In this document: one piece after another, positions 6,561 through 36,230 of the stretch
Position numbering within the stretch: position 1 is the stretch's first letter
Layout of the letters: every line of letters begins with the position of its first letter
Source of the DNA: Escherichia phage 520873
Direction: 5' to 3' (one strand)
Length of the DNA stretch: 37,583 nucleotides
Sequence record: NC_049344.1
Made by a program: the position numbers and the translations under genes
The notes under the pieces: model-generated
The model's input: only the letters and a program-made list of their open reading frames with translations
What the model was told of the DNA's origin: nothing
Databases searched by the model: none

Positions 6561-8875
6561 TTGCTGTACCTGCCACAGCTCAACAAGCACCAGATACAGA
6601 CGCTGGCCGTCATGACAGCGGCGATGTTCAGCAGCACCTTCGAAAAACTCTGCGATGACTTTGGCGCGATCGACGGCGAGCTGACCATGGATATAACGCT
6701 GAAGGCGTATCAGATGCTGGCCCGCATGGCGTTACATCTGCAGACAGTGCCGCCGCATTATGACGCACTGACAACAGACAAAGACCGGAAGAACGAACCG
6801 GACACGGAACTGCTGCCGGGTGCAATCCTCCGCCTGACCTGTGCGGACTGGTGGAAACGCAAATTGTGGCTTTTACGTTGCGAATGGAGAGAGGAACAAC
6901 TCCGCGCTGCCTGTCTGGTTTCCAGAAAAACATCCCCCTATCTGAGTCAGGACGCATTAAGTGAATTTCGCGCACAGCGCGAGAAAACACGCGATTTCCT
7001 GAAAAGTTTCATGCTGGAAAATGAAGACGGGTTCACGATTGATCTCGAGACGGTGTATTACGCGGGAGTAAGTAACCCGGTCCACCGTAAGGCAGAAATG
7101 ATGGCCACCATGAAGGGGCTGGAACTTCTGGCCGAAGCCCGTGGCGACAAAGCGGTATTTCTGACCGTTACCTGCCCGTCAAAATATCACGCAACAACGG
7201 AGAGCGGTCATCCGAATCCCAAATGGAACAGCACCACCATGCGCGATTCCAGCGATTACCTGGTTAACACTTTTTTAAGGCAGTCCGCAAAAAACTGAAC
7301 CGCGACGGCCTGCGCTGGTATGGCATCCGCACGGTGGAGCCACACCATGACGGCACCGTGCACTGGCACATGATGGTCTTTGCACATCCTGAAGAAATCG
7401 ACAGCATCGTGGACATCACCCGTGATATTGCCATTCGCGAAGACCGCCACGAGCTGGGCAATGACATAACTCCGCGCTTTAAGGCAGAGTACGTCGACGG
7501 TTCGAAAGGTACGCCGACCAGCTACATCGCCACCTACATCGGAAAGAACCTGGACAGCCGCGCCGTGGATGGCATTGACCCGAAAACAGGCAAGCCACGC
7601 GTTGATCACGAAACCGGAAAATCAATGGCCGAGAGCGTGGAACGCGCCATCGGCTGGGCGCGCCTTCACCGCGTCCGCCAGTTCCAGTTCTTTGGTATCC
7701 CCTCCCGTCAGGTATGGCGTGAACTCCGCCGCCTTGCCAGTCAGATGGCCCGCAGCCCGGAAGGTCCACAACGTCTGGAAAATGACGCAATGGATGCGGT
7801 ACTCGCTGCCGCTGATGCCGGGTGTTTTGCCACCTACATTGAGAAACAGGGTGGCGTACTTGTTCCACGCAAGGATTACCTGATTCGCACCGCCTACGAC
7901 CTCGCAGAAGAGCTGAACGATTACGGCGAGCAAAGCGTACAGATTTACGGGATCTGGTCGCCACAAATCGGGGAATCTTCCCGCGTGTGCACGCACCCGG
8001 ATAACTGGAAGCTGGTAAGACGTAAACCGGAAGCGGAAGACAGCGCCCGCGAAAATGGTTTTGACCTTCAGGGCGGCCCTGCCGCCCCTTGGACTCGTGG
8101 CAATAACTGTCCCCGTGTACAGGAAACGGACAACAACGGGACAGAACAGCCGGAAGAACGGCCAGCACCGTGGCCGCAGCTTCCTGACGGCGTTGACGTG
8201 AACGAATGGATGCGCTCACTGAAACGGCACGAACGCCGGGCGCTGATGCGTTCGCTTCGTGACAAACAGGCAAAAAACAGCAGCGATGAAATGCAGAACT
8301 GGACACAGAGCCGCAAACAGCCACAGCCTTTGCCTGATAACCACGAGTTACTCGCTAAAGAATGGCGGGAGTCTGCTGAATCTCTCGGCCTGCATATTGG
8401 TGAACAGCAGATGCAGCACCTGTTACGGGGCGGCAGTCTGTACGTTGACGGCAGCATCATTGCACCGCAGGGATTTGAAATTGTACGCAAACCGGATACC
8501 CGCCCGGACAGCCGAATCACGCAGCTCTGGCAACGCCTGAGCCGTAATCACGGCGTAAGCAGCACGGAGATCCGCCATAACCCGGTCGCCAGCTATCTGG
8601 AACAGCTGGGGGCATCAGACCCTGAAGCCGCCGCACGCCTGGCATCCACACTTCAGCAAGACCAGAACACCATGAAAACCCCCGTTACCGTGCTTTCTGA
8701 CATGCTGCGCGCCATCCGTGACGCAGAGCACGCACAGAGAATCAGTGAAACCACTGAACGCGCCCACCGCAAAGCAGACCTGCTGCGGGGTAGCCTGACC
8801 AGTGGAAACAAAAAACAGACAGAAACGGGACTCACAAATCCCGTAAATGAGCAAAAAACGTGCCGCGATATATGA
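6561..8875 (+). CDS. A: Replication initiation endonuclease gpA (HUH rolling-circle initiator); apparent frameshift at the T6 run 7271-7276
   Basis: Two ORFs (6561..7298, 7334..8875) totalling ~760 aa, similar to P2 gpA (761 aa); HUH motif EPHHDGTVHWHMMVF; the second frame is open back to 7268 and joins the first at aacacTTTTTTaagg. Confidence 0.8.
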
Positions 8876-8951
8876 AGCACGCACAAAACAGGCAAAAGAG
8901 GGATTTCAGAATCCCGTAAACGGTTAATTAATCAACATAAGGAAAATCGAC

Positions 8952-9911
8952 ATGAAAATTTGTATCGACGACGGCTCCACCAACATCAAGCTGGCATGGA
9001 CTGAGAACGGCGAACGCCGCAACGCCATCAGCCCGAACAGCTTCAAGTCGGAATGGTCTGCGCCGTTCGGTGGCACGCAGCCCGCGAACTACATGCTTGA
9101 TGGCGTGCGCTATGGTTTTGATCCGGTCAGCGATCGCTTTATCCAGACGACCGACACGCAATACCAGTACAGCGATGTGAATGTCATTGCCATTCATCAC
9201 GCGCTGGTCAAATCAGGCATCACGCCACAGGAGGTGGATGTGGTTGTCACCCTGCCACTGAGCGAGTATTTCGACACAAACGCACAGCCGGACATGGCCA
9301 ACATCAACCGCAAAAAAGCAAACGTTATGCGCCCGGTGGAATACCAGAACGGCGAAGCATTCACTATCCGTAATGTACGGGTTATGCCTGAATCCATTCC
9401 GGCTGGCTTTAAAGCACTGGCTGACATGAGTCCGTTTGAATCCCTGCTGATTGTGGATTTAGGTGGAACCACGCTGGATGTGGCAAAGGTTCAGGGACAA
9501 CTGGCAGGTATCAGCCAGGTGTTTTGCGATCCACACGTAGGCGTTTCCCTGATGGCTGATGCAGTACTGTCGGTGATGGCCACTAACGGTATGCGTACCA
9601 GTCACCACATCGCCAATACCATTATCGAACATCGCCATGATGAAGCCTGGCTGCGCCAGCACATCCACAATGACGCGCATTACGCCAGCCTGATGGCGGT
9701 TATTCGTGAAAAGGAAGAAACACTGAAACAACGCGTGATCCGCGCGCTGGCGGGTTTTTCGGGTTACGGGCGGGTGATGGTTGTCGGTGGCGGGGCGGAG
9801 ATTGTGGCACCCGCTATCCGCGAAGCCTGCGGAGTTAATGCGACTTTCATCGCGGACGGGGTGCCACAGTTTGCTCTGGTTAATGGGCTGTACGCAATGG
9901 ACAAGGAGTAA
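8952..9911 (+). CDS. parM: ParM/StbA-family actin-like segregation ATPase
   Basis: IDDGSTNIKLAW, ISPNSFKSEW, YSDVNVIAIHHALVKSG, MPESIPAGFKAL, LLIVDLGGTTLDVAKVQGQLAGISQVF, VMVVGGGAEIV, ALVNGLYAM align block-for-block with remembered plasmid R1 ParM; RBS AAGGA upstream. Confidence 0.85.
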   Translation: MKICIDDGSTNIKLAWTENGERRNAISPNSFKSEWSAPFGGTQPANYMLDGVRYGFDPVSDRFIQTTDTQYQYSDVNVIAIHHALVKSGITPQEVDVVVTLPLSEYFDTNAQPDMANINRKKANVMRPVEYQNGEAFTIRNVRVMPESIPAGFKALADMSPFESLLIVDLGGTTLDVAKVQGQLAGISQVFCDPHVGVSLMADAVLSVMATNGMRTSHHIANTIIEHRHDEAWLRQHIHNDAHYASLMAVIREKEETLKQRVIRALAGFSGYGRVMVVGGGAEIVAPAIREACGVNATFIADGVPQFALVNGLYAMDKE

Positions 9912-9915
9912 ACCA

Positions 9916-10227
9916 ATGACGACACCAACCAGGCGGATAAGTTTCTATCTGAAGCCTGCGGCCGTCAAGAACGAAAGCGAAGCATGCGCCTGGCTGGACA
10001 GCCTTACACCGGAAGCCCGCAAAAGCGGCCAACGCGTGGCTTTTCTGGCCGGGCTGGCACTTCTGAAAATGAATCCGGCAGAGGCTTACCGACTGGCCGC
10101 ATGGGCTGATGATGAGATGTTACCTGTGACACAAATCAGCTCAAAAAAGTTTGAAGCACAGTCTGCACCAGTGGCTAAGATAACCAGCCAGATGGCTGGG
10201 AATATCCGGGCGTTATTTCCTGAGTAA
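9916..10227 (+). CDS. parR: ParR-like centromere-binding adaptor
   Basis: RRISFYLKP...LDSLTPEARKSGQRVAFLAGLALL...RALFPE parallels remembered R1 ParR (RRTIAFKLNP...LDSIPQGERSRLNRAALTAGLAL...RSLFPKE); RBS AAGGAG, starts 5 nt after the parM stop. Confidence 0.75.
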   Translation: MTTPTRRISFYLKPAAVKNESEACAWLDSLTPEARKSGQRVAFLAGLALLKMNPAEAYRLAAWADDEMLPVTQISSKKFEAQSAPVAKITSQMAGNIRALFPE

Positions 10228-10355
10228 AAGCATCTGCGCGAAAAATGCTCACGTTTATAGAAACAGTATCATTCCATTTGGCACACTTACTTCAATAATC
10301 GATCTGTTAAACAAATAGATTGTCTATTATCTATCGATTAAAACGATCAATTATC

Positions 10356-10383
10356 TTGACAGTAATGTGCCTTTTTGTAAGAT
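10356..10383 (+). promoter_or_regulatory. Sigma-70-like promoter (TTGACA-N16-TGnTAAGAT) in an AT-rich GATC/ATCGAT-rich region
   Basis: TTGACA at 10356-10361, extended -10 TGTAAGAT at 10376-10383. Confidence 0.4.
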
Positions 10384-10389
10384 CGTTCG

Positions 10390-10576
10390 CATTGTGAGCG
10401 ACAAGATAATTGCGCAGCATTGTCCATGCAAAACGCCCCAATAGCAGCAACTATTGGGGCGTAAAACTCGGTCGGACTCACTTAACCTGATATGCGTGCC
10501 TTCCGAAGTAGTTCAAAATGTGCGTCGTATATTTTATTGCTTACACGCACCTCTGTAAAGGCACGCATATTTTTCC
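10390..10576 (+). promoter_or_regulatory. Structured ~185-nt leader or small RNA ending in a terminator-like hairpin
   Basis: Perfect 11-bp hairpin CGCCCCAATAG/CTATTGGGGCG (10434-10461); nested hairpin with perfect 13-bp outer stem ATATGCGTGCCTT/AAGGCACGCATAT (10490-10570) followed by T5 (10571-10575), 16 nt upstream of the next start codon. Confidence 0.3.
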
Positions 10577-10591
10577 TATGAGGTAAATAAA

Positions 10592-10861
10592 GTGCGGGCT
10601 AAAACAGGTATTTGCAAGAACCCTCATCGTTATAACCCAACATTTCTGTCTCTCCCTGAATATCAAGGACAAGAAGGTCGGCACAAATGCGCTGCCTGTG
10701 CTTTTGAGCTAGGCATAAAAGATGCGCTTGAAGGACGCGCTATGGCTCAGAATGATTTAGTTTTAGCTAACATTCCGTTTAGCCAGGCTGGAACTGTAAG
10801 GCACAGAGATGCCTATGAAGCATATGTTCGTGGTTGGCGATTAATACACAGCAACAATTGA
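10592..10861 (+). CDS. Hypothetical small Cys/His-containing protein (89 aa), function unknown
   Basis: GTG start with GAGG RBS; product contains CKNPH...HKCAAC; own promoter and terminator. Confidence 0.5.
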   Translation: MRAKTGICKNPHRYNPTFLSLPEYQGQEGRHKCAACAFELGIKDALEGRAMAQNDLVLANIPFSQAGTVRHRDAYEAYVRGWRLIHSNN

Positions 10862-10870
10862 TACTTTTGA

Positions 10871-10894
10871 AGCGCCGATAAGGCGCTTTTTTTG
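10871..10894 (+). terminator. Rho-independent terminator
   Basis: AGCGCC-gataa-GGCGCT followed by T7. Confidence 0.55.
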
Positions 10895-11347
10895 TTTGCA
10901 CGATAGTGCACAAGTTTGCACAATTTTTTTGAACGACTTTTTGTACTTCCGGCCCGCATGGCGGCTGGATCCGTCAAGGATCCGTGCGTGCACAAAAAAA
11001 CGCGTTTTTTCTGCGCGCAGGTGACGGGGGAACAGCCCGCGTTTCAGGGGGTAAATAGCGCTCCCTTAACGATGTCGCAGCGACACGACAGAATGGCCGT
11101 ATTTCTCACGCTGAGCGTGAAAAATACGTGAGGGATTCTGATTTGATGGGGTGAAAGGTAAGGCCGTCAAAATCGCACTGAGGCGGCGAGAACATGCAGT
11201 CAACGCGGTGGGATTGCGTAAGAGTCTGACCGTCGATGGTGGCGATAAACTGGAAGGCGTCGTGAAATTATCTGACTGATACAGGAGCTGGAGAGTCGGG
11301 GCATAAATTTTTTATGCCCCGGCGAAGCAGCAGACAAGCGAAGCGCG

Positions 11348-12388
11348 TCAGGATGTGGGCTGGATGTCTAACAGTGCGTAAGGGTTAAAGCGGATCACCT
11401 CTTCGCCAAGCCAGTCATTGATGTGCTTCATGGCCTCCATGACGGGCATCAGCTCGTTAATTGCGTAAACCCGCGCGGCCTTCTCCACATCACCAAACGC
11501 ACTTTTTTCACCCGGCATCGCCCCCATCAGTTGCGGCGGAACGCGGTGCGCAGCCAGCACATCATCACGGGATGCCGCCTTAACATTCATGAACTCATCC
11601 TTTGCGGTGATCTGCTGGAACGGCAAAATTTGCACCCCCTCTTTGCCCCCGTTGGGCGCATGAATGAGCACGTTTTTAAACGCACCACCACCACGCGCAC
11701 CCTGTAGCGTTTCTTTCAGGGAGTCCATGCTTTCGCGGTTTACCTGCGCTGCACCGATGTAGATGATGCACCCGGCGTGGGATCCGTTGTCGTAATACAG
11801 TTTTCTGAACATGTCCGCCGAATGAGACAGGCTGGCCGAGAGTAATGCGCCGAGATATTCCGGCATGCCGTAGATTTCCTGGTTAATGTCAGGATTCATC
11901 AGGTGACACACTTTGCCAGGGCGAAACTGAAACGCGTCCTTGCCATCCTGCACATACCACCATGATTCAAGATCGCTTCCGCGTCGCATGTATTTCGCCA
12001 GGGCGTGCCGTAATTTAAGCGGTTCGCCGAGCATATTGCTTCGAAGCTCAAGAAATGCGTTACCGAACACAAACCAGTCCAGCGCCGAGAAATCCTGCCG
12101 GGAAAGCAGCGGGTGCGGGATGTAGCAACCGAGTAATACATTGCGCTTAAAGTAAAGCGCAGACTGATGCCAGGACGTTTGCCGGGCAGCTCTTGCCAGA
12201 CCGTACCAGTCCACCGGGGTTTCATACCACCGACCGTTATCAGCACAGTACATATTGTCCAGCAGGTCATGCCCGGTCAGGCGGTAAGGACCATCAAATG
12301 TGAATGCACTGAGCGACGATTCTTTCCTGAGCGCATCAGCGAGATCAATGCGTGAACTCATGCGCAATTTTTTATTTTTTCTGCTCAT
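11348..12388 (-). CDS. Q: Portal protein gpQ
   Basis: 346-aa ORF matching P2 gpQ in size and position, immediately downstream of the terminase gene. Confidence 0.9.
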   Translation of the reverse strand: MSRKNKKLRMSSRIDLADALRKESSLSAFTFDGPYRLTGHDLLDNMYCADNGRWYETPVDWYGLARAARQTSWHQSALYFKRNVLLGCYIPHPLLSRQDFSALDWFVFGNAFLELRSNMLGEPLKLRHALAKYMRRGSDLESWWYVQDGKDAFQFRPGKVCHLMNPDINQEIYGMPEYLGALLSASLSHSADMFRKLYYDNGSHAGCIIYIGAAQVNRESMDSLKETLQGARGGGAFKNVLIHAPNGGKEGVQILPFQQITAKDEFMNVKAASRDDVLAAHRVPPQLMGAMPGEKSAFGDVEKAARVYAINELMPVMEAMKHINDWLGEEVIRFNPYALLDIQPTS

Positions 12389-22551: not shown

Positions 22552-24537
22552 ATGAGTACCACAACACGAAAATTTAAAACCGTTATCACCGATACGGGTG
22601 CAAAAAAATTAGCTCAGGCAGCCGCGCCAGATGGTAAGCCTGTCCGCCTGACTCATATGGCCGTGGGCGACGGTGGCGGCACGTTGCCCACACCAGACAG
22701 TAAGCAGACCCGTCTGGTGCATGAGGTGTGGCGACATACTGTTAATCGCGTCATCCTGGACGCAACACATCAGAACCGCATTATTGCGGAGCTGGTTATT
22801 CCTCCTGAAACGGGCGGATTCTGGATCCGGGAAATTGGTGTATTTGATGAGCACGGCGATTTAATCGCGGTGGGAAATACTGCCGAAAGTTACAAGCCAG
22901 CCGTTGCCGAAGGGTCCGGTCGTGCACAAACATTTCGCACCATTCTGACCGTATCCAGCACTGCCACCGTGGCGCTTACCGTGGATAACACCATGGTGAT
23001 GGCCACAGTGGATTACGTGGATGACAAACTGAAAGAGCATGAACAGTCACGACGTCACCCGGACGCCTCGCTGACCGCAAAAGGCTTTGTTCAACTCAGT
23101 AGCGCCACTAACAGCGTGTCTGAAACGCAGGCTGCAACGCCGAAAGCAGTAAAGGCCGCGTATGATCTTGCTAACGGTAAATATACTGCGCAGGATGCCA
23201 GCACGACGCGAAAAGGCCTTGTCCAGCTCAGTAGCGCCACCAACAGCACGTCTGAAACGCAGGCTGCAACGCCGAAAGCAGTAAAGGCCGCGTATGACCT
23301 TGCTAACGCAAAATATACCGCTCAGGACGCCACGACGGCACAAAAAGGGATAGTCCAGCTCAGTAGTGCCACCAACAGCACGTCTGAAACACTGGCCGCG
23401 ACATCAAAAGCGGTTAAGGCGGTAATGGATGAAACGAACAAGAAAGCGCCCTTAAACAGTCCTGCGCTGACCGGAACGCCAACAACGCCAACTGCGCGAC
23501 AGGGAACGAATAATACCCAAATCGCAAGCACGGCTTTCGTTATGGCTGCGATTGCCGCCCTTGTAGATTCGTCACCTGACGCACTGAATACGCTGAACGA
23601 GTTAGCGGCGGCGCTGGGAAACGACCCGAATTTTGCGACCACCATGACTAACGCGCTTGCGGGTAAGCAACCGAAAGATGCCACCCTGACGGCGCTGGCC
23701 GGGCTTGCTACTGCGGCAGACAGGTTTCCGTATTTTACGGGGAATGATGTTGCCAGCCTGGCAACCCTGACAAAAGTCGGACGGGATATTCTGGCTAAAG
23801 CGACCGTTACTGCCGTTATCGAATACCTCGGTTTACGAGAACTCGGCACAAGCGGGGAGAAAATACCGTTACTCAGTACAGCGAATACCTGGACCAATCG
23901 ACAAACATTCAGCGGTGGCCTTTCTGGGGAACTGTCCGGCAATGCCGCTACTGCAACAAAGCTGAAAACAGCACGAAAAATTGCTGGAGTTGGTTTTGAT
24001 GGTTCTAGCGATATTTCAATTAGTGCCAAAAATGTCAATGCATTTGCACTCCGACAAACAGGTAATACTGTTAATGGTGATACATCCGTTGGATGGAATT
24101 GGGATAGTGGTGCATATAACGCCCTGATTGGTGGTGCATCTGCATTAATTCTTCACTTTAATATAAATGCTGGTAGCTGTCCTGCCGTACAATTCCGTGT
24201 GAATTATAAAAATGGTGGCATTTCCTACAGGTCGGCTCGTGATGGTTATGGGTTTGAATTAGGTTGGTCAGATTTCTATACCACGACACGAAAACCTTCA
24301 GCGGGAGATGTTGGTGCATATACGCGGGCAGAATGTAACTCAAGGTTTATTACAGGTATTCGCCTTGGCGGTCTGTCATCTGTTCAGACATGGAATGGTC
24401 CCGGCTGGTCTGACAGGTCAGGTTATGTCGTTACGGGTTCAGTTAACGGAAACCGTGATGAATTAATTGATACAACACAGGCAAGGCCAATTCAGTATTG
24501 CATTAATGGGACGTGGTATAACGCGGGGAGTATTTAA
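22552..24537 (+). CDS. H: Tail fibre protein gpH (constant N-terminal part plus currently expressed variable C-terminal part)
   Basis: 661-aa ORF; three 44-aa collar repeats; C-terminal portion lies inside the invertible segment. Confidence 0.85.
   Translation: MSTTTRKFKTVITDTGAKKLAQAAAPDGKPVRLTHMAVGDGGGTLPTPDSKQTRLVHEVWRHTVNRVILDATHQNRIIAELVIPPETGGFWIREIGVFDEHGDLIAVGNTAESYKPAVAEGSGRAQTFRTILTVSSTATVALTVDNTMVMATVDYVDDKLKEHEQSRRHPDASLTAKGFVQLSSATNSVSETQAATPKAVKAAYDLANGKYTAQDASTTRKGLVQLSSATNSTSETQAATPKAVKAAYDLANAKYTAQDATTAQKGIVQLSSATNSTSETLAATSKAVKAVMDETNKKAPLNSPALTGTPTTPTARQGTNNTQIASTAFVMAAIAALVDSSPDALNTLNELAAALGNDPNFATTMTNALAGKQPKDATLTALAGLATAADRFPYFTGNDVASLATLTKVGRDILAKATVTAVIEYLGLRELGTSGEKIPLLSTANTWTNRQTFSGGLSGELSGNAATATKLKTARKIAGVGFDGSSDISISAKNVNAFALRQTGNTVNGDTSVGWNWDSGAYNALIGGASALILHFNINAGSCPAVQFRVNYKNGGISYRSARDGYGFELGWSDFYTTTRKPSAGDVGAYTRAECNSRFITGIRLGGLSSVQTWNGPGWSDRSGYVVTGSVNGNRDELIDTTQARPIQYCINGTWYNAGSI
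23062..23457 (+). repeat. Three tandem ~132-bp coding repeats within H
   Basis: Near-identical DNA units encoding KG[FLI]VQLSSATNSxSETQAATPKAVKAAYDLAN. Confidence 0.6.
23816..23841. other. Invertase crossover site, left (gix/cix-like), inside H
   Basis: TTATCGAATACCTCGGTTTACGAGAA; matches the reverse complement of the right site at 19 of 26 positions. Confidence 0.5.
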
Positions 24538-24539
24538 CG

Positions 24540-25073
24540 ATGATGCACTTAAAAAACATTACTACTGGCAACCCTAAAACAAAAGAGCAATACCAGCTAA
24601 CAAAGCAATTTAACATCAAATGGCTTTATTCAGATGATGGAAAAAACTGGTATGAGGAACAAAAGAATTTCCAGCCAGACACTTTGAAAATGGTCTATGA
24701 CCATAACGGCGTTATTATTTGTATTGAAAAGGATGTTTCAGCAATTAATCCGGAAGGCGCAAGCGTCGTTGAATTACCTGATATTACAGCAAATCGCCGG
24801 GCTGATATTTCGGGTAAATGGATGTTCAAAGATGGCGTAGTGATAAAGCGAACTTATACCGGGGAAGAGCAGAGGCAGCAGGCAGAGAATGAAAAGCAAA
24901 GCCTGTTGCAACTTGTCAGGGATAAAACCCAGTTATGGGACTCACAGCTACGGCTGGGCATCATTTCCGACGAGAGTAAACAAAAATTAACAGAGTGGAT
25001 ACTCTTTGCGCAGAAAGTCGAATCTACAGACACTTCCAGCCTGCCAGTAACGTTTCCCGAACAACCTGAATGA
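24540..25073 (+). CDS. G: Tail fibre assembly chaperone gpG
   Basis: 177-aa ORF after H; N-terminus MMHLKNITTGNPKTKEQYQLTK is homologous to the inverted copy. Confidence 0.8.
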   Translation: MMHLKNITTGNPKTKEQYQLTKQFNIKWLYSDDGKNWYEEQKNFQPDTLKMVYDHNGVIICIEKDVSAINPEGASVVELPDITANRRADISGKWMFKDGVVIKRTYTGEEQRQQAENEKQSLLQLVRDKTQLWDSQLRLGIISDESKQKLTEWILFAQKVESTDTSSLPVTFPEQPE

Positions 25074-25078
25074 GACAA

Positions 25079-25100
25079 GGCCCGATAGCGGGCCTTAATT
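25079..25100. terminator. Hairpin between convergent G and G'
   Basis: GGCCCG-atag-CGGGCC followed by a T-rich run on the plus strand. Confidence 0.4.
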
Positions 25101-25101
25101 T

Positions 25102-25629
25102 TTATTCAGGCTTTTGTGGCCATTCAGGATTTGCCGTATCCACACGGCTGACCAGAACACTGTAGCGTTCCCATGACTCCAGTCGTGTGCGCTCCTCGTC
25201 TGTTGCCATATTCAGCCTGGCAGCGCGTTCCAGTGGCTGGATGACTGATTCAGCTTCGGAAAGCAATGCGGCCTTTTGTGATTCGGCCTGTTGTTGCTGT
25301 TCGTCTGCTGTATAAATCCGCTTAACCACAGTTCCGTCCTTAAACATCCACTTCCCTGAATCATCGGCACGACGATTGACTGTTATATCTGGAATCTCAA
25401 CGACACTAAAGCCTTCGGGATTAAGCGTTGAGGCATCTTTGGTTATGGCAACAATAATATTATTTTCGTCGTAAACAATCTTTATGGTGTCTTCCTGAAA
25501 GCTATTTACTTCCTCATACCAGTTTTTACCGTCTTCTGTATATAACCAGATAACATCAAAATTTTTTGTCAGTTGATATTGGGCAACAGTTTTTGGATTA
25601 CCCGCAGTAATATTTTTTAAATGCTGCAT
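25102..25629 (-). CDS. Alternative tail fibre assembly chaperone G'
   Basis: N-terminus [22 protein letters not shown] homologous to G, diverged C-terminus. Confidence 0.75.
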
Positions 25630-25632
25630 AAA

Positions 25633-26538
25633 TTACACCTGTGCGACGTTATACCATGTGCCATTGATGTATTTTTGTATTGGCCTGAATACTGCGGGGT
25701 CATCACCATCGACTTCACCGACAATACCAAGCCTGGTAATTACGTGCCCTACTTTCTCATACATCACCCCTTTCTGCATGGTCTGGACAACACGTGTGCC
25801 AAGTCTGATATCTCTCACATAGCGGGAATCAAAGTTACCGTAATCCGAGGGATTAACACGCCCCGTAATATTTATAGTCTTATTACTTTGAATGCTTCCG
25901 GAAACAAAGCGCATAACATGGACGTTATTAGCATAAACATCCAGATTACCATCGCCATTTTGTTTAAATCCGGTGTCGTTATCACCAAGAACAATAGAGT
26001 TCCCACCCAACGCGTTATTCGTGCCAAGTGCCAGCCCGCCATCAATCCTGGCACCATTACCAACAAACACAATTCCTGTTCTTAAGTTGATGCCGAATGG
26101 CCTTAATGGCCCAATATCTCCATTTTCACCCTCATTTTCTCGTGTAGGAATGATATACAGGTTTTCTTCAGAACGGCGAAAAATAGCCCCAAAAGATGAA
26201 TTAAATATCCTCAGTGCATTGACTGTAGATATTTTTACTTCACTGCTGAAAAGGGCTTTAACAAGAACATACAGAGCATCCCATTTAAGATTCATCAGGT
26301 CTTTTGTTGTGGTGCTCTGGCGACTTCTCCATTTGAAATATTCATTGCCGTTGTCACCTGTTTCAAACCACATATATGAATCAGTATCGCTGTCGGCATC
26401 ATTTTTAAATCCAATCTTTGCCCAGTCAGTATTTCGAATCCAGGCAAGGATTGAGTCGTTTTCAAAAGTAAGCCCACCGGACAAGGTATCACCATTCTTT
26501 TGCACCGCGTTCCTGGCCCTGTTTACCGTTTCCTGCAA
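25633..26538 (-). CDS. Alternative tail-fibre C-terminal cassette H'v (promoterless)
   Basis: 301-aa open frame ending ...IQKYINGTWYNVAQV, parallel to the H C-terminus ...IQYCINGTWYNAGSI; 5' end lies in the right crossover site. Confidence 0.7.
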   Translation of the reverse strand: MQETVNRARNAVQKNGDTLSGGLTFENDSILAWIRNTDWAKIGFKNDADSDTDSYMWFETGDNGNEYFKWRSRQSTTTKDLMNLKWDALYVLVKALFSSEVKISTVNALRIFNSSFGAIFRRSEENLYIIPTRENEGENGDIGPLRPFGINLRTGIVFVGNGARIDGGLALGTNNALGGNSIVLGDNDTGFKQNGDGNLDVYANNVHVMRFVSGSIQSNKTINITGRVNPSDYGNFDSRYVRDIRLGTRVVQTMQKGVMYEKVGHVITRLGIVGEVDGDDPAVFRPIQKYINGTWYNVAQV

Positions 26539-26555
26539 ACCGAGGTTTTAAATAA
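26530..26555. other. Invertase crossover site, right (gix/cix-like)
   Basis: TTCCTGCAAACCGAGGTTTTAAATAA resembles the Gin gix sequence and is inverted relative to the left site. Confidence 0.55.
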
Positions 26556-26609
26556 TGGCCGTTTCTGGCCTGCATGGCATGATTTGCGCTTTTGGACGGG
26601 AGATTCAGT

Positions 26610-27209
26610 GTGCTGATTGGCTATGTAAGGGTATCAACAAATGACCAGAATACAGACCTGCAACGAAACGCTCTTGTTTGTGCAGGATGTGAACAAATAT
26701 TTGAAGATAAATTAAGCGGGACAAAGACAGACCGACCGGGATTAAAACGCGCTTTAAAGCGCCTTCAAAAAGGTGACACGCTGGTTGTCTGGAAACTGGA
26801 TCGCCTCGGGCGAAGCATGAAACATCTGATTTCTCTTGTCGGGGAACTACGGGAGCTAGGGATTAATTTTCGCAGTCTGACCGACAGCATAGACACATCT
26901 TCTCCAATGGGGCGTTTTTTCTTCCACGTGATGGGTGCCCTGGCTGAAATGGAACGTGAATTAATTGTTGAACGTACACTGGCCGGGCTGGCGGCAGCGC
27001 GCGCAAGGGGGCGCACAGGCGGACGTCGACCGAAGCTGACAAAAGAACAGCATGAGCAAATAGCAAGGCTAATCAAAAACGGGCACGACAGAAAACAACT
27101 GGCAATAATTTACGGCATTGGCACATCGACGATTTATCGTTATCACCCTGTAGGCGATATACAGACTGAAGAAACAACCGGGCAGACTCAGGAAAATGAA
27201 AACCGCTAA
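26610..27209 (+). CDS. Serine DNA invertase, Gin/Hin/Cin/Pin family
   Basis: GTG start gives MLIGYVRVSTNDQNTDLQRNAL...; C-terminal HTH (GTSTIYRY); sits directly beside the crossover site. Confidence 0.85.
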   Translation: MLIGYVRVSTNDQNTDLQRNALVCAGCEQIFEDKLSGTKTDRPGLKRALKRLQKGDTLVVWKLDRLGRSMKHLISLVGELRELGINFRSLTDSIDTSSPMGRFFFHVMGALAEMERELIVERTLAGLAAARARGRTGGRRPKLTKEQHEQIARLIKNGHDRKQLAIIYGIGTSTIYRYHPVGDIQTEETTGQTQENENR

Positions 27210-27232
27210 TCTGACCATTAGCGGTTTTTGTG
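27196..27232. terminator. Bidirectional hairpin between convergent invertase and gpU genes
   Basis: AAACCGCTAAT-ctgacc-ATTAGCGGTTT with flanking A and T runs; includes the invertase stop codon. Confidence 0.5.
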
Positions 27233-27237
27233 TTAAA

Positions 27238-27732
27238 TCAGAACAGCCCTTTAACTGAACTGGCCGCGCTGTTAAGAGATGATGTCACCTTATCTTTGAA
27301 GCCGGACAGCATATCACTGAACGATGAGGATTGCAGGCGCTCCCGCAAATCCTCATCACAGCGTTCAAGAGTCAGTGAAAATTCTATCTTTTTCGCCTTA
27401 CCGTAGCGATCAAACTCGGAGCGGGTCGTATTCGTTTCAGTCAGGACATACATGCCGTAAATCTGCCCGACGCCATCAATCAAAGGCCAGGGTCGTCCTG
27501 TATACGCCTGCGTGGTCAGCAGCGACAGCGACACTTCGCCACCTGTAATTTCAGGATAAAGCACACCAGAAAGAACGATGCGATCATCACCTGCACCGAT
27601 ATACTGCCAGCTTGCTGAACGGTTAACGCGTTCATTTTTCACATGCCGCCAGCTTTTGTTTTGCTGTAACTGCTGATGCGGCAGCGTGCGCAGCTCAAAA
27701 ACAAACATGCCGTAGATCATCATCATGGCCAT
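27238..27732 (-). CDS. U: Tail protein gpU
   Basis: MIYGMFVFELRTLPHQQLQ...VLYPEITGG...PLIDGVGQIYGMYVL parallels remembered P2 gpU. Confidence 0.8.
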   Translation of the reverse strand: MAMMMIYGMFVFELRTLPHQQLQQNKSWRHVKNERVNRSASWQYIGAGDDRIVLSGVLYPEITGGEVSLSLLTTQAYTGRPWPLIDGVGQIYGMYVLTETNTTRSEFDRYGKAKKIEFSLTLERCDEDLRERLQSSSFSDMLSGFKDKVTSSLNSAASSVKGLF

Positions 27733-27738
27733 GACTCC

Positions 27739-30581
27739 TCAATCTTTATCGTAAAAACTGCCACGCCCGGCACGGGCGCGCCGTTCCATTTCTGCCCTGA
27801 CCATTTCACCGACCAGTTTCGCCAGTTCGCGGGGATTCTGCGTAACAACGTTATGCAGATGAACATGAATTTCACCACCAAATCCGGAGGCAACAGGCTC
27901 CCGGTTACGGGAAGTTACAGGAACTGATACCACTGGAGATCGTATAGCCTCCGCCACCGGGCGGGAGCTGGCCGCAACAACAGGGACCAGCGCCGGAGGC
28001 AGCGGAGCCGGGACCACGGGTGTGATATTAATTGCGGGGGCAGGCTTACTGACCTGCGCAATCTTCCGCTCCTGCCACTCCCCACGAACAGCAAGTGCTC
28101 GGGGCAGGTTTTTAAAGACAATATCGCCGGGGCCAATGCGTTTTTTCGTCTCCTCAACCAGCTTACCTGTGTTATCAGCAATTTTGCTGAGTCTGCGCAG
28201 CGTACCGGTATTGCTGTCTGTGAGCGGTTTATTGTCTTTGGGGTTATCACCTCCGGTGCCATTGCCATTTTCCACAGGCTTCGGCGGATTGATTTTCGCC
28301 AGGTCCCCCTGAAGCAAGGCAACCTTGTCCTGAAGAATGGCCGCACGCTGTGCGTCTTCGATTTTCTTGCGCGCCCTTTCCGCTTCATCCGGAAGCACAC
28401 CAAGCTTTTCAAGTATCCACGCCAGCGTATCCAGCAACATTTTTGCAGGTGTCAGAACAAGTTGTAACGCACCGCCAAGAACGTTACCGAATATCTCGCC
28501 AGCACTGGTACATTTATCCAGAGTTTCCTTGCTGGACTCCATCGGTGACAGCAGCGATTTAAACCAGTTAAACACCTGGCTGATCCCACTCCCGATTGCG
28601 TCAAAAACAGGACCAAACCGTTCAAAGGTTTCGCGCAACGGGGTCAGCCTTTCCATAATCCCGCTGAACACCCCGGCAAAAAATGCCCTGATGGGATCCC
28701 AGTATTTCCAGATAAGAACGGCAGCTCCGGCAAGCGCAGCCACGATAAGACCAACCGGACTGAACAACGCCCCGATAGCGCCTCCCAGTAAAGAAACGGA
28801 ACCCGTCACCATTCCCCATAGTGCTGGCAGACCCCTGACAGCATTCATTGATCCGGTCAGGAGGGAAAAACCAAGACGCAGTTTTGCCAGCGGGCCAGCA
28901 AGCACACCAATAGCCAGCGACAACGAGCCAACCGTTGCAGTCATTGCCAGCAGTGCACCGCCTGCAATCAGTAGCTGGCGCGTCAGTGCGGGATGGGCCT
29001 GCGCCAGCGCCGTCACCTTTGATACCACACGCGTGAGCCACTGCGTGACAGAACGCAGCGGACCGTCAATCAGATCTGCAATGCGGATGCGCAACCCTTC
29101 CCATGCACTGCTGAGTGATTTCAGATCGCCGTCAAGGTTGTTGGCCATAACCTTTGCCGTGCGTTCAGCCTCACCGCGCGCGCCTTCAAGTTCTTTTCTC
29201 AGTTTGGGTAAGGAGCCGTCACCTGCCGCATCAACGAGGGCCATAAATGATGTGAAAGCCTCTTCTCCGGCAATGTCCTTAAAGAACGATACCCGGTCAA
29301 CTTCCCCGTATTTGCGGGTAGCTTTATAAAGGTCAGCCAGCACATCCTCCATCGGGCGCATTTTGCCCCCGGCATCCGAGACAGACACGCCAAGCTCTTT
29401 CAGCGCCTCTGCTGCCGCCTTTGGCGGTGATGCCAGACGAGCCAGGCTGGCACGCATTGCCGTACCAGCATCACTCCCCTGATACCCATATTCGCCAGCA
29501 CGCCCGCCATCGCTGCGGCCTGCTCCAGCGATATTCCCAGCTTACCCGCCACCGGACCTGCATATTTCATGGTTTCACCCAGTGCGCGAAGGTCAGTGTT
29601 GGTACGGGTAAACGCTGCGGTGAGTGTGTCGCCGACCCGGTCCATCTGGTCAGCAGAAAGACCGAACTGCGTCAGAATATTTGAGCCAATATCCGCCGTC
29701 TCACCGAGGTCCATACCGCCAGCCGTTGCCATGCTCAGTACGCCAGGGAGCGCAGCCTGAATGGCCTGTGGTGTAAAGCCAGCCATTGCAAGAAATGCCT
29801 GTCCACTGGCGGCATCGCCTGCGGTGAACTGCGTTTCAGAGCCAAGTTTTAACGCCTGCTCACGCAGCGCCTTAAACTGCGGGCTGTTCTGGTCGATTCG
29901 CGTCAGTGCCTGAACGCGGGACATCTCTTTGCCGAACCCGATCGCAGGCTGCAAAAAACGCCCGGCAGCATAGCCGCCCGCCGCTGCCGCACCAATTGCC
30001 AGCGCACCACCTGTTTTCAGTTTTCCCGCTGTTTCCTGCGCGCGCGAATACCGCTCACGCGCCCGTGTTACACGCGCAAGCGCCTGCCGTTCGCGTTCAA
30101 GCTGGTTGTTGTACTGTTCGGTGCGTCTGATGGCCTGCTGGATGGTGTTATCGCTGCCTGTCAGGGAAATGCCGTGGCGTTTCAGCTCTCCGCCAAGCTC
30201 CCGCATTTTCTGAATTTCCCGTGTGCGCGATTCATTCAGGCGTTCAAGCCGGGTGCTTAACTGCTGCATCAGCTTTTGTTGTTTTTCGCTGAGCACTGTA
30301 CCCGTGCGTTGTAACTGATTAAGGGCGTTAAGCTGGCGTCGTGCTTTCACGATGCCCGCATCCGCTTTACTGACAGCGTCACGGGCGCGCTCAAATGATC
30401 GCGCCTGACGCTCGAGATTTTTGATCGCCCCCTGCGTTCGCTGGATGGAGTCACCAAACTGCCCCATCAGGCGGCGGGCGTTTTCGGCAGGCCGGGTCAG
30501 CCTGTCAACGGCGCTGAAAGCGACCCGGATATCAAGAGTCTTCATTGTCTGCATTCCCGCTACGAAGTGCCGCCCGCTCAC
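27739..30581 (-). CDS. T: Tail tape measure protein gpT; apparent frameshift at the G4 run near 29476-29479
   Basis: Two overlapping ORFs (29400..30581, 27739..29457); restoring one G gives continuous ...ANMGIRGSDAGTAMRASLARL... Confidence 0.8.
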
Positions 30582-31070
30582 GCCAGCTAACCACTTCGCC
30601 GGGCGTCATCATGAAGATTTCGGCGGGCGACCAGTTAAAAATGGCGGCAATATCCGCCACCAGATCTTCGATGTGCTCAAAGCACACCAGGGTGATTACG
30701 CTGCCGTCTCCTGCACGCTCTTCGCGCCAGAGTCTGGCTCGCTCATAAAATTTACAGCCACAGCGCACAACTGAATAAAATCGCGTGACGACATTTTTTT
30801 AATCATCACTTCATCCAGTCGTGGCGAGGTCACGCGAGGCAACAGCGTGAACATGGTATCCGCTTTCAGATTCAGCACATCAGACAGCGACAGACCACGC
30901 AGGGATCCAGCCTGCTCAATAGCCCCGGTGATCTCCACATACGTGATTTTTTCGCCACCACGCTCAATTGGTCGGGTCAGTTTTACGCCACGTTCGACAG
31001 CCATATCCTCAACTGCCGTCACATTATCCGCCACGGTGTTATTCCGGGTTTCAGTATCGATGTCTTTCAT
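30532..31070 (-). CDS. Tail assembly chaperone E+E' (-1 frameshift product)
   Basis: A second ORF in the -1 frame overlaps the 3' part of E; on the mRNA an A7 run (plus-strand T7 at 30794-30800) sits at the frame junction and the -1 frame opens immediately after it. Confidence 0.5.
30696..31070 (-). CDS. E: Tail assembly chaperone gpE
   Basis: ORF in the gpE position upstream of T. Confidence 0.7.
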   Translation of the reverse strand: MKDIDTETRNNTVADNVTAVEDMAVERGVKLTRPIERGGEKITYVEITGAIEQAGSLRGLSLSDVLNLKADTMFTLLPRVTSPRLDEVMIKKMSSRDFIQLCAVAVNFMSEPDSGAKSVQETAA

Positions 31071-31125
31071 CTGTTGTCTCCTTTTCAGTCAGAGGCGACG
31101 CACTGCGCCGCCAGCATATTACTTA

Positions 31126-31638
31126 TCAGCCAAGCCCAAGCGCGGAACGGATGCGATCGGGCACAATGTCCTTGCCGTCCTTCCGGTAAATGAAGTTCAG
31201 CAGGTCAATCTCCCACAACGGGCGATCGTTAACACTCAGCTTGTAGTAGGTGTTTTTAATGGCGTAAGTGTGTGATGTGGCTTCGCCCTGTTTGGCTTCC
31301 CCCATATCAATTTCCGTCACACGTCCGCGCATTTCGACTTCATACAGGTCGCTTTCTGCATCGGTGTAGTATTCACCCGCAAAACGCAGCAGCGTGCCGT
31401 CAATCGTGCCGCCATACTTAAGGAACAGCTCACGAACTGCGCCCCCCATGACAAAGCTCGCATCAAGCGCGGAGTCGTCCAGACCGAGATCAATACTTAC
31501 CGCACCCATCATGCCACCACCCCGGTAGCTGTCGGTTTTGCGCGTCAGCTTAGGCAGAGTGACGGACGTCACCTTACCCACTTCGTTTTCACCATCCACA
31601 AACAGCGTAAAAAAGCGAAGATGTTTTGGTACAGCCAT
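31126..31638 (-). CDS. FII: Tail tube protein gpFII
   Basis: 170-aa ORF, P2 gpFII size and position. Confidence 0.85.
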   Translation of the reverse strand: MAVPKHLRFFTLFVDGENEVGKVTSVTLPKLTRKTDSYRGGGMMGAVSIDLGLDDSALDASFVMGGAVRELFLKYGGTIDGTLLRFAGEYYTDAESDLYEVEMRGRVTEIDMGEAKQGEATSHTYAIKNTYYKLSVNDRPLWEIDLLNFIYRKDGKDIVPDRIRSALGLG

Positions 31639-31858
31639 CAGACACCTCCCAGCACCGCAAATGCGGGACCAAAGAATTCATCAGTAAACGACTGGTAAAG
31701 CTCCATGTCTTCCAGTGGCGGAACGGGCGTATATTTGTAGCGAATACGCACGCGCCCCTGACGTAAATTCGTGGTGCCGTTATCCACCACGTCATACCAG
31801 CACGACGCCCCAATCAGTTTCCCGGCAGTAACCAGTGAATCCAGTTTTGCCCTGATGG

Positions 31859-33812
<1,954 letters not shown>

Positions 33813-34938
33813 TGATGGCACTGATAACATCTTTCACGTTCGCAGGCGTCAGTGGACTGTCGATGGTTTCAAACTGCGCTTCCGCAATTGAATCAGCCAG
33901 CACCTGTGCGGTTCGGGTATACACCTCAAAGATGTAGGCGTTCGTTTCCGGTGTGCGGTTGCCCCAGAAGCGGAACCCGTTGCGACGAATAATGGTCGTG
34001 ATTTCTTTGTTGTTGAGGCTGTTGGCATCACTGTCTTCGGCCTGCAACGACCAGAACACATGCCTGGACATCCCCAGCACATTTTTAACCGGAACGTTGG
34101 ACAGCGATTTGTGCCAGCCCTGCTCATGGTCAATGTACGCACGAAGGCCGCACGCATAGGCAGGCGCGGGGAACGTTTCGTTTTTGCCACTTTTCGGGTT
34201 GTAGGCGATGAAGTCCGGCCATAAGAGCATCACCTCACGTTCGTTGAATTTCTGGCGGTAGGTAATCGCCTCAGCCATCGTGTTACAGCCGTGACATGAG
34301 GCATACACAAACGCGCGCAGTTTACCCGCAATCACGCACAGGGATTTTGTTACCGCCTCCGTATCCAGCTCCGGCGCGGCCAGAATACGCGGACGGTATC
34401 CGATGCTTTCATCCTGCTCTGCAACAAGCAGCGCATACATCCCCGTATAGCTGCCGTCAGATTCAGAACCACCGATAACCAGTTGATCCTGCGTTTTTCC
34501 GTCTTCTTCTTTGTGTTCAGCCACGCGAACGACGATCACCTTTGTGCTCACCTGGTCTGCGATGGCCTTAAGCGCACGATAAAGCGTCCCCGTTGTTCCG
34601 CATTTTCCCAGCACGTCATTGACGCGGGTCAGCAGTGTGGGCTTGTTCAGCGGGAACAGCTCCGCATCCGCATCATCCGCCGTTGCCACGATACCGATAA
34701 CACTGGAATCAACATCATTAATCGCTGTTACCAGGTCGGTACTTTCCGTAACACGGGCACCATGAAAACGAGTTTCACTCATAGCTTCAGCCCCTTGTAT
34801 CCGTTAAATGATTCGGCAACAATCATCACCCACCACGCGCGTAATCTCACCCCTGCGCCGTTCTCCCGCCACGGCGACAACAAAAAGCAGTAACCCCCTC
34901 CGCACGCACATGCGACCATGCCGCACAGGGAGGGAAAG

Positions 34939-36036
34939 ATGACCGACACCACCATGCAATTGCTCAGTCAGAGCACAGACCCCGTGAAAATGCCGGATTT
35001 TGATATTCTCGCGGAGGGGAAAACGCTGTCCGGCGTGGCAGAGCGCCTGATGAGTCTGTCACTGACCGACAACCGGGGATTTGAAGCGGACCAGCTCACC
35101 ATCACGCTGGATGATGCGGATGGTCAGTTGCAGCTACCGCCACGGGGCGCGCGCCTGACGGTTCTCATTGGCTGGAAAGGAGAACCGCTGACAGAAAAAG
35201 GCACTTACATTGTTGATGAAATCGCTCACGAAGGTCCGCCGGACAGGCTGACTGTTTCAGCCAGAAGCGCAGATTTTCGGGATGAATTTAACGTTAAACG
35301 TGAAGTGTCCTGGCATGATGTGACCGTTGAGCGCGTGGTATCTGCTATCGCTCACCGGTACGGCCTGAAACCGCAAATCAGCGAAATGCTGATGGATATC
35401 GAAATCGACCACGCCGACCAGACCGAAGAAAGCGACATGTCCTTCCTTACGCGCATGGCGGAAATGCTGGCGCAATCACCACGGTAAAAAGCGGTAATCT
35501 GTTATTCATCATGCCAGGCGGTGGCGTGAACGCACAGGGAAAACCATTGCCATCGTTTGCCATCACACGCAGCAGCGGCGATCGCCATCAGTTTCGCATT
35601 GCTGACCGCGAGGCGTATACGGGTGTACGCGCCTACTGGCTTGATCTTAATTACGGGAAAAAGAAAAAGTCAGCGTGAAACGCCGCAAACCGAAAAAGGA
35701 GAAAAGCAGCAGCCGGGAAGGCGACTATATGGAAGGCGCGGAAGCAACGTGTTTGTGTTACGCAAGACTTATCAGAACGAGCAGGCAGCAAGACGTGCAG
35801 CGGCGGCAAAGTGGCAGCAGCTACAACGCGGAGCCGCAGCGTTCTCCATCACGCTGGCGCGTGGACGTGCAGAACTCTATCCCGAAATGCATGGCACGGT
35901 GACAGGCTTCAAAAGTGACATCGACAATCAGGACTGGATTATTGCAAAAGCCGAGCACACCATTGACAACAGCGGCTTTACCACTCAGCTTGAGCTTGAA
36001 GCAAAAATCCCGGAATGGATAGCAGAAACAGAGTAA
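34939..36036 (+). CDS. D: Tail protein gpD (late control gene D); three apparent single-base frameshifts
   Basis: Segments in three frames align in order to remembered P2 gpD (PDFDILAEG...TDNRGFEADQL...SARSADFR...; ...AITRSSGDRHQFRIADREAYTGV...; ...REGDYMEGAEA...; ...AKWQQLQRGAAAFSITLARGRAELYPE...). Breaks fall near 35465, 35670 and 35745, in short A runs where visible. Confidence 0.8.
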
Positions 36037-36230
36037 ACAACTTAGATGCATTAGCCCTGACATTTGTTAACGCGCCTACAGCAAGAATCATAACCAATCT
36101 GACAGCCTACCAAGTGTCAAAATCAGAAGTACCTTACATTAGAATATGTTAATTTGTAGCAAACAAATTTACACACAAATGATTACTGCTGAAATAGCGC
36201 CCATAAATGCCATGTCAGAGGATCCATGTT

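Follow-up and report, generated by a model that had tools for sequence, protein, structure and literature searches.

Background

Site-specific inversion of tail-fibre genes has been textbook knowledge since the work on the G segment of phage Mu in the 1980s. The G segment, with its recombinase Gin, the gix sites and the sis enhancer, combines a fibre N-terminus that stays constant with two alternative C-termini, and has two opposed chaperone genes and an invertase gene just outside the segment. All these features recur in the locus described here, from Escherichia phage 520873 (NC_049344.1; the whole 37,583-nucleotide stretch that was analysed is called the window below), along with 26-bp sites with a GA core and about 89% nucleotide identity to Mu over most of the length of the segment. 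The C segment of phages P1 and P7 (Cin, cix) is the same kind of switch, and its homologues of S, S', U and U' match parts of the window segment at about 90% nucleotide identity, but the C segment is 4.2 kb long, the cix cores are TT/AA, and, relative to S, cin is found on the other side. Invertible tail-fibre C-termini are also found inside E. coli prophages, namely, the P segment of e14 (PinE) and the P2-like prophage loci of EPEC E2348/69, where flipping of the latter and of the e14 type was seen by sequencing clonal cultures (Goldberg et al. 2014, PMC4272514). In these loci, the sites are of the pix type (AAACCTTGGTTT), the segments measure about 1.9 kb, and one locus is a three-site shufflon, whereas the window has two sites of the gix type; the pix-type sites and the shorter segments led us to reject the EPEC P2-like loci (Goldberg et al., PMC4272514) as the same module.

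The closest relatives are P88, the type of the genus Xuanwuvirus, and the prophage of strains UTI89 and NU14, which contain the same module in the same genomic position, with the same outer half-sites of the crossover sites and an invertase that is 98-99.5% identical to that of the window. They differ from the window in the middle of the tip encoded by the silent H' cassette (window 25840-26253). Inversion goes entirely unmentioned in the paper on P88. In the genus Peduovirus, P2, pro147 and P2_AC1 have an H tip and a G gene collinear with the window H' and G' (92-95% nucleotide identity), but no invertase and no second cassette, and FI follows directly downstream in the same orientation; P2-type prophages have a single gix-like sequence where the constant and variable parts meet.

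Architecture of the module

The module of NC_049344.1 is very probably an invertible tail-fibre switch of the Mu G-segment type in a P88-like E. coli prophage (Xuanwuvirus, Peduoviridae), an identification that draws on its parts, their continuity of frame, the Gin-family recombinase, the conserved sites and enhancer, and the natural inversion of homologous modules at these sites. The H C-terminus and G, followed by an inverted second set of G' and H', are all found where the original prediction had placed them (Table 1), in a segment that measures 2,714 bp between the crossover centres (23829-26542).

Table 1. Coordinates of the features of the tail-fibre module (position 1 is the first letter of the window)
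Feature	Position	Strand	Size or evidence
H, whole gene	22552-24537	+	661 aa as-is, then G
H constant N-terminal part, aa 1-426, expressed in both orientations	22552..23828	+	Phage_tail_fib and Phage_fiber_2 domains
Left gix-like crossover site within H, TTATCGAATACC-TC-GGTTTACGAGAA	23816..23841	.	Inverted repeat; natural-inversion breakpoint in UTI89/NU14 and 32F4/33E
H variable C-terminus, currently expressed, 235 aa, Mu S' (G(-)) type	23829..24537	+	Similarity to Mu S'
G, chaperone for tail-fibre assembly that goes with the expressed tip, Mu U' type	24540..25073	+	Caudo_TAP domain; 95% aa identity to Mu U'
G+C-rich hairpin and T-run between convergent G and G', mid-segment; likely terminator	25077..25096	+	8 pairs, 6 G-C; consensus match only
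G', silent chaperone gene, Mu U / P2 G type	25102..25629	-	Caudo_TAP domain; 92% aa identity to Mu U
H', silent start-less cassette, alternative 302-aa fibre C-terminus, pro147/P2 type	25633..26542 (open frame 25633-26538)	-	Gp34_trimer domain
Right gix-like crossover site, TTCCTGCAAACC-GA-GGTTTTAAATAA	26530..26555	.	3 mismatches to Mu gix; breakpoint in natural isomers
Gin-family serine DNA invertase, 199 aa, GTG start	26610..27209	+	Resolvase and HTH_7 domains; Gin structure matches
Stretch homologous to the Fis-dependent recombinational enhancer, in the 5' end of the invertase gene	26628..26699	.	72/72 identical to Mu gin and to P88
Hairpin between convergent invertase and U; likely terminator	27199..27228	.	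12-pair stem; consensus match only

The constant part of the fibre is of the P2 H type rather than Mu S, in keeping with a host phage that, unlike Mu, is a P2-like myovirus, and it is 99% identical at the nucleotide level to its counterpart in P88. The tip that is currently expressed shares, over H residues 497-661, 88% identity with the C-terminus of Mu S' and 89% with the silent fragment of P88. The tip encoded by H', in contrast to that of Mu S, to which it is 51-52% identical, belongs to the pro147/P2 type and matches the pro147 fibre tip at 98.7% of its amino acids. Similarity between the two tips of the window is confined to the last 71 amino acids, which are 38% identical, and G and G', inverted relative to each other, are about 69% identical in nucleotide sequence.

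The H' cassette is promoterless, as predicted, and lacks a start codon of its own, with a stop codon three codons upstream of the crossover. Flipping the segment in silico joins H' in frame to the constant part and yields an uninterrupted H::H' fibre of 728 amino acids, and the ATG of G' follows 3 nt past the H::H' stop. Thus, as in the Mu G and P1 C modules, a constant N-terminus joins either of two C-terminal cassettes in frame, each with its own chaperone.

The module had been assigned to the interval between G and FI, the location of the Z/fun cargo locus in P2, and this part of the original prediction does not hold. The Z/fun equivalent requires an insert between G and a co-directional FI, as in genuine P2-type prophages, which have G, a cargo gene and FI, and no invertase. 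Here, the invertase is followed by U on the minus strand and then by T, E', E, FII and FI. P88 and the UTI89 prophage have the same reversed FI-U tail block as the window, so that the neighbour of the module in Xuanwuvirus (P88-like) phages is U. Within this block, the tape-measure gene T appears split (27739-29457 and 29400-30581) by a one-base deletion in a C run at 29475, one of 20 bases that the window lacks in comparison with a deposited chromosome; the split is probably a sequencing error and not biology.

Crossover sites and natural inversion isomers

The inverted gix-like sites lie, to the base, where they had been predicted, and both fall in an inverted repeat with arms at 23809-23841 and 26530-26562. 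They have the organization typical of the Din/Gin family: two inverted 26-bp sites, each composed of two 12-bp half-sites, with a shared asymmetric 2-bp core. In the inverted alignment, 20 of the 26 positions match, and the central dinucleotide (GA/TC) is identical and in opposite orientation; the window sites are thus imperfect copies of each other, whereas the two sites of Mu are identical. A search with the gix sequence taken from the Mu record, allowing up to 3 mismatches, recovers the right site as the sole match (0.00 expected from 100 shuffles), and in a looser half-site scan of the whole window, the two sites alone exceed the chance level. Additional candidates for a third site, which could have made the locus a shufflon or accounted for the reversal of the FI-U block by an old Gin-mediated inversion, were rejected as chance-level matches (17 of 24 half-site positions), like those in shuffled sequence. 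A multiple-inversion shufflon of the p15B Min type, or of the kind of the three-site EPEC locus, has at least three sites; the window and an intact relative each have two above chance.

Related elements have conserved sites, with the outer half of the left site kept in P88, UTI89 and P2-type H genes, and the orientation of the segment between them varies. We surveyed 5,426 complete E. coli genomes, counting those in which at least 80% of a 5,181-bp query was covered in one collinear place, and found the segment as in the window in 125 genomes and flipped in 124; the records of P88, NU14 and Mu, too, carry it in the opposite orientation to the window. Two near-clonal pairs, UTI89 versus NU14 (over 29,145 bp) and 32F4 versus 33E (over 21,145 bp), are 100% identical except for an exact 2,662-bp reverse complement, the ends of which fall within the 26-bp sites in both pairs. 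The inner half-sites are swapped between the members of each pair and the outer half-sites are kept, which places the crossover within site positions 10-21, a range that includes the centre. Homologous modules, therefore, invert at the centres of these sites in nature, and the window copy would be expected to do the same. The natural isomers and the conservation of the sites answer both grounds for refutation named with the original prediction, a single fixed orientation and crossover sites that related elements do not share.

The right site of the window has one peculiarity, a C at 26536 in its inner half; in UTI89, P88 and Mu, this position is occupied by T. This variant is also present in fixed P2-type H genes. 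The as-is junction with C at 26536 was found with 100% identity in strain 510016 only. Flipped-type junctions with this C yielded at least 15 exact matches, but the two inspected are both fixed P2-type fibres without an invertase, and hence provide no natural flipped sibling for the exact lineage of the window. In view of the variant base in its right site, the window copy is only predicted to flip.

Recombinase, enhancer and proposed mechanism

The gene predicted to encode a Gin-family invertase does so on comparison with characterized recombinases. The protein is 99.5% identical to the UTI89 invertase, 98% to that of P88, 84.5% to Mu Gin, 76.5% to PinE and 71% to Cin. It has the architecture of the small serine recombinases of the Din/Gin family, an N-terminal resolvase catalytic domain (PF00239, E 3.7e-50) followed by a C-terminal HTH (HTH_7, PF02796, E 8.8e-13), and matches the Gin crystal structures 4M6F (E 3e-99) and 3UJ3 (E 1.4e-98) over its full length. 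The N-terminus, (V/M)LIGYVRVSTNDQ, is the same as in Gin, with the catalytic Ser9 in the YVRVST motif, and Met114 is present as well; in Gin, S9 is the linking serine and M114V is a Fis-independent mutant (PMC3575834). Over its first ~230 nt, the gene matches Mu gin with 97% identity or more, whereas the C-terminal DNA-binding part has diverged from that of Mu Gin.

The conserved 5' end includes the stretch that corresponds to the recombinational enhancer, identical to that of Mu and, with the annotation in the P1 record as the reference, 55/72 identical to the enhancer at nt 19-90 of P1 cin, the same place in the recombinase gene. Sequence identity and gene position thus point to a cis-acting enhancer of the Din/Gin family with predicted Fis binding; the gin coding region holds three Fis sites (PMC3378877).

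By analogy with these systems, transcription of the late operon V-W-J-I-H-G would enter the segment with the first 426 codons of H fixed, and the orientation of the 2,714-bp segment would determine the rest of H and the downstream chaperone. The recombinase, encoded just outside the segment, would bind the two inverted 26-bp sites as dimers and, with host Fis, on which inversion probably depends, bound to the enhancer within the invertase gene, would form a synaptic tetramer. Ser9 would then cut the central GA/TC dinucleotide, the subunits would rotate by 180 degrees, and religation would leave the segment inverted. In the window orientation, the phage would make a fibre with the Mu S'-type tip and the U'-type chaperone; the other orientation would provide the pro147/P2-type tip and the U-type chaperone. 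Because the tip would depend on the orientation, a lysogen population would release particles of two receptor specificities. That the two orientations confer different host ranges, as originally proposed, is suggested by the match of the tips to Mu S' and pro147 fibres and by the precedent of the P88 tip: residues 716-746 of the P88 fibre determine host range experimentally, and tip swaps between P88 and pro147 alter it (PMC5285337).

Alternative explanations and the state of the window copy

The alternative that deserves most attention is that the window copy is a Gin-type cassette by descent that no longer inverts, owing to the variant right site, to lack of invertase expression, or to decay after the insertion of IS100. 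The prophage is indeed defective, with the sheath gene FI interrupted by IS100, such that a host-range switch would have no virion to act on, unless recombination rescues the fibre genes. In addition, the variant half-site has the form found in non-invertible P2-type H genes, the two independent records that are 100% identical to the window over 22552-27732 both show the as-is orientation, and a simple promoter scan detected no convincing sigma-70-like promoter upstream of the invertase. However, the invertase ORF is intact and nearly identical to that of UTI89, whose module has inversion isomers, the enhancer is the same as in Mu, and the right site retains the central dinucleotide and 11 of 12 half-site positions; half-sites of proven function accept A or T at the variant position and T at position 5. 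On balance, we consider loss of inversion in the window copy unlikely.

The differences in orientation could also, in principle, come from RecA-dependent homologous recombination between inverted homologies, for which G and G' or a 40-nt inverted repeat with 80% complementarity (24484-24523 and 25647-25686) might serve. The breakpoints in both clonal pairs, however, map within the 26-bp sites rather than to G/G' or to this repeat, the perfect core common to the sites is only ~12 bp, far below the length required for efficient RecA exchange, and the near 1:1 split, clones included, requires a high rate of flipping; this route is accordingly very improbable. Even less credible is mis-assembly of repeats as the source of the inverted second gene set or of the orientation. 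The sequence quality is imperfect, with 20 bases deleted in the window relative to the deposited chromosome, mostly in short runs of the same base, but none of the 20 deletions falls in 22552-27732, the stretch identical in two independent records, and the same architecture recurs in some 250 complete genomes as well as in P88, an isolated phage. Site-specific inversion by the Gin-family recombinase is the most probable reading of the module.

Implications

The module is an ordinary element of a well-known, already understood type and carries small weight for basic biology, because its mechanism is long established. Its implications concern the phages that harbour it. We tentatively suggest that P88-like prophages, present in about 250 of the 5,426 complete E. 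coli genomes, are two-state phages in which the segment flips in the lysogen fast enough for a 1:1 split even between clones, and the silent slot docks tips from fixed P2-type fibres via the shared gix-like junction, with the pro147-type tip as the case at hand. In the window lineage, this tip seems to have been acquired from a fixed P2-type fibre, an origin of the H' cassette to which the flipped junctions with C at 26536 in such fibres point. If this scenario is correct, the narrow published host range of P88 covers one of two states, and the module may stay active even in prophages unable to make tails.

Annotation pipelines call the silent H' cassette a separate, truncated or hypothetical tail protein; with the sites known, both fibre isoforms can be predicted. 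Differences in the orientation of this segment between otherwise identical genomes should be taken neither for assembly errors nor for markers of relatedness. Host-range work on P88-like phages, including the engineering of P88 for therapy, should consider the second fibre state.

An invertible tail-fibre segment of a known kind

The prophage in the window, which is P2-like and of the genus Xuanwuvirus (P88-like, Peduoviridae), carries a fibre switch that belongs to a well-known kind of element and works like the G segment of phage Mu. The original prediction of a Gin-type switch is confirmed as an observation, and its interpretation is supported except for the remark on synteny. The fibre gene H, with its constant N-terminal part and variable C-terminus, and the chaperone gene G stand next to an inverted silent chaperone gene, G', and a silent alternative fibre C-terminal cassette, H'; the module belongs with the G/C-type fibre modules, and its enzyme with the Gin/Din invertase family, and the gene is already labelled 'DNA invertase' or 'recombinase family protein' in the deposited records.

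Features of the fibre switch and of the surrounding prophage
Feature	Position	Strand	Content
Late tail operon		+	V, W, J, I, H, G
H	22552-24537	+	Pfam: tail-collar and fibre-repeat domains
Left gix-like site	23816-23841		TTATCGAATACC-TC-GGTTTACGAGAA
G	24540-25073	+	Pfam: Caudo_TAP chaperone family
G'	25102-25629	-	Pfam: Caudo_TAP chaperone family
H' open frame	25633-26538	-	Pfam: fibre trimerisation domain
Right gix-like site	26530-26555		TTCCTGCAAACC-GA-GGTTTTAAATAA
Recombinase gene	26610-27209	+	199 codons; Pfam: Resolvase and HTH_7
U	27238-27732	-	first gene past the invertase
Tail block	27238-34782	-	beyond U: T, E', E, FII, FI, in that order
IS100 istA	31945-32967
IS100 istB	32964-33746
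D and ogr	about 35000-36100	+	beyond FI

Both of the predicted crossover sites, which resemble the Gin crossover site gix, are present, enclosed by the arms of an inverted repeat recovered by a repeat finder (23809-23841 and 26530-26562). Taken as an inverted pair, the 26-bp sites coincide at 20 of 26 positions, and their asymmetric core is identical but oppositely oriented. The right site differs at three positions from Mu gix, TTCCTGTAAACCGAGGTTTTGGATAA, which the Mu record contains at each end of its G segment, and the window holds no further copy of Mu gix within three mismatches (expectation 0.00). In a scan of the window with all known half-sites, only these two sites exceeded the level of shuffled sequence, and there was no third; the module is not a multi-site shufflon. 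Classical P2-type H genes that lack an invertase contain one isolated gix-like sequence, TTATCGAATACCTCGGTTTGCAGGAA, precisely where the constant part meets the variable part (6014-6039 in both P2-type prophage loci compared), which fits an exchange of tips between fixed and invertible fibres at this point. Within the constant part of H, positions 23061-23420 consist of three tandem 132-bp repeats, 74-87% identical, that match three Phage_fiber_2 repeats.

When the 2,714 bp between the core centres (cuts between 23828 and 23829 and between 26542 and 26543) are inverted in silico, H runs on from codon 426 without interruption into H', across the junction ...ATCGAATACCTCGGTTTGCAGGAAACGG..., yielding a fibre of 728 amino acids, and G' starts 3 nt past the stop codon of this fibre. 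As it stands, H' lacks its own start, the minus strand having a stop codon three codons upstream of the crossover, and its description as a promoterless cassette was therefore correct.

Natural inversion isomers

Both orientations of homologous modules occur in public genomes. Among 5,426 complete E. coli genomes searched with a 5,181-bp region, 125 contain the arrangement of the window and 124 the arrangement flipped in silico, the criterion being that at least 80% of the query is covered in one collinear place; given that the segment accounts for 52% of the query, this coverage is attainable only in the matching orientation. In the P88 and Mu records, the homologous segment is opposite to that of the window; for isolated P88, this state is recorded at 8490-11590 of its locus.

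Two near-clonal pairs, UTI89/NU14 and 32F4/33E (the latter with chromosomes 2 bp apart in length), are split between the two orientation lists. In the comparisons of UTI89 with NU14 (29,145 bp) and of 32F4 with 33E (21,145 bp), every base is equal outside a 2,662-bp block, which in both pairs is an exact reverse complement with ends that fall inside the 26-bp sites. The inner half-sites move with the segment while the outer half-sites stay fixed, and therefore the crossover lies within site positions 10-21, the central dinucleotide included. Isomers of this form bear the signature of site-specific inversion and not that of homologous recombination between G and G'.

The recombinase and its probable enhancer

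The recombinase matches, over residues 1-183, the sequences of the Gin crystal structures 4M6F (E 3e-99) and 3UJ3 (E 1.4e-98), and the comparison with known invertases bears out the predicted assignment (84.5% identity to Mu Gin, 76.5% to e14 PinE, and 71% to P1 Cin, along with 98% to the P88 enzyme and 99.5% to the UTI89 enzyme). Both Ser9, which forms the covalent bond with DNA in Gin, and Met114, the replacement of which by Val renders Gin Fis-independent (PMC3575834), are present.

At the nucleotide level, the gene is a mosaic with respect to Mu gin, with 78/78, 76/78, and 74/78 matches in the first three bins, down to 39/78 in the DNA-binding part. Over roughly the first 230 nt, identity is at least 95%, and over the last third, encoding the DNA-binding domain, it is about 50%. 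Three Fis sites sit inside the gin coding region (PMC3378877), and in the P1 record, nt 19-90 of cin are marked as the Cin enhancer. The corresponding stretch of the window, 26628-26699, agrees with both Mu gin and P88 at 72 of 72 positions, and with the P1 enhancer at 55 of 72.

Position of the module and state of this copy

The one claim that did not hold concerned location: the module is not in the interval between G and FI, and it does not occupy the Z/fun position of P2, the invertase being adjoined by minus-strand U and then T, E', E, FII, and FI. The FI-FII-E-E'-T-U tail block is reversed relative to P2, such that U is convergent with the invertase and FI divergent from D and ogr. Because the same layout recurs in P88, UTI89, NU14, 32F4, and 33E, the reversal is a feature of the genus; the ends of the reversed block gave no gix-like match in a half-site scan.

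Over 22552-27732, the window matches the record 'Escherichia phage 503458' and the E. coli 510016 chromosome at 100% identity. IS100, at about 31859-33806, splits FI, the gene for the tail sheath (with the insertion point set against the intact 32F4 prophage), and, with FI broken, the prophage is probably defective and unable to make tails. In the inner half of the right site, position 26536 is C, in contrast to the T of UTI89, P88, and Mu. Fixed P2-type H genes have this form; the substitution leaves the amino acid in the H' frame unchanged (TTG for TTA) and falls at a position that already varies among half-sites proven functional. We consider continued flipping of this copy quite probable. 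Hits to UTI89-type modules fail to cover about 8% of the query in both orientations, the gap being the middle of H' (25840-26253). Given this gap, and given that, within an invertible module, C at 26536 is found only in strain 510016, the lineage seems to have taken up a pro147-type tip recently, and the database contains no flipped sibling of it.

Several other features of the prophage were observed. Compared with the 510016 chromosome, the window is short of 20 bases across 2851-37355 (18 single-base deletions and one of two bases), mostly in short runs of the same base and none within 22552-27732; one, in a run of C at 29475, breaks T, the tape-measure gene, into two ORFs, and the shortfall looks like sequencing error. 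The 123-bp stretch 810-932 is 99% identical to the 510016 sequence just past the other prophage end (36022-36145 of that locus), where the counterpart overlaps a tRNA-Leu gene, and is probably an attachment-site repeat. In the early region, 8952-9911 and the next ORF bear, in the record of the matching chromosome, the annotations plasmid segregation protein ParM and partitioning/stability protein.

Alternative fibre tips and host range

Identity to the Mu counterparts is 88% for the expressed tip (amino acids 497-661, against S') and 95% for G (against U'), so that the state of the window is the counterpart of Mu G(-). The silent G' resembles Mu U, at 92% identity. For the silent H' tip, identity to Mu S is only 51-52%, but it reaches 98.7% with the fibre of pro147, a P2-like phage, and 98.3% with the P2_AC1 fibre. 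In classical P2-type prophages, the H tip and G form a collinear counterpart of the whole H'+G' block, at 92-95% nucleotide identity; those compared lack an invertase and retain the P2 order of G, cargo gene, and FI. Over the last 71 residues, the window's two tips are only 38% identical.

That invertible fibre loci of P2-like prophages in E. coli do flip was demonstrated in clonal cultures by sequencing (PMC4272514), but those loci have pix-type sites and are modules different from the gix-type one described here. In a search at the level of mentions of the genus name, we found no paper describing a fibre switch in Xuanwuvirus. In P88, exchange of fibre residues 716-746 for those of pro147 confers the pro147 host range, in which K-12 and B strains are included (Chen et al., PMC5285337). 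These residues fall within the invertible segment, and we infer from this, on good grounds, that the two states differ in receptor specificity; phage with the window's fibre in its flipped form would be predicted to plate on K-12 and B strains, as pro147 does. The P88 study does not use the words invert or inversion and mentions neither an invertase nor a second fibre state; the narrow host range of P88 may, accordingly, describe one fibre state only.
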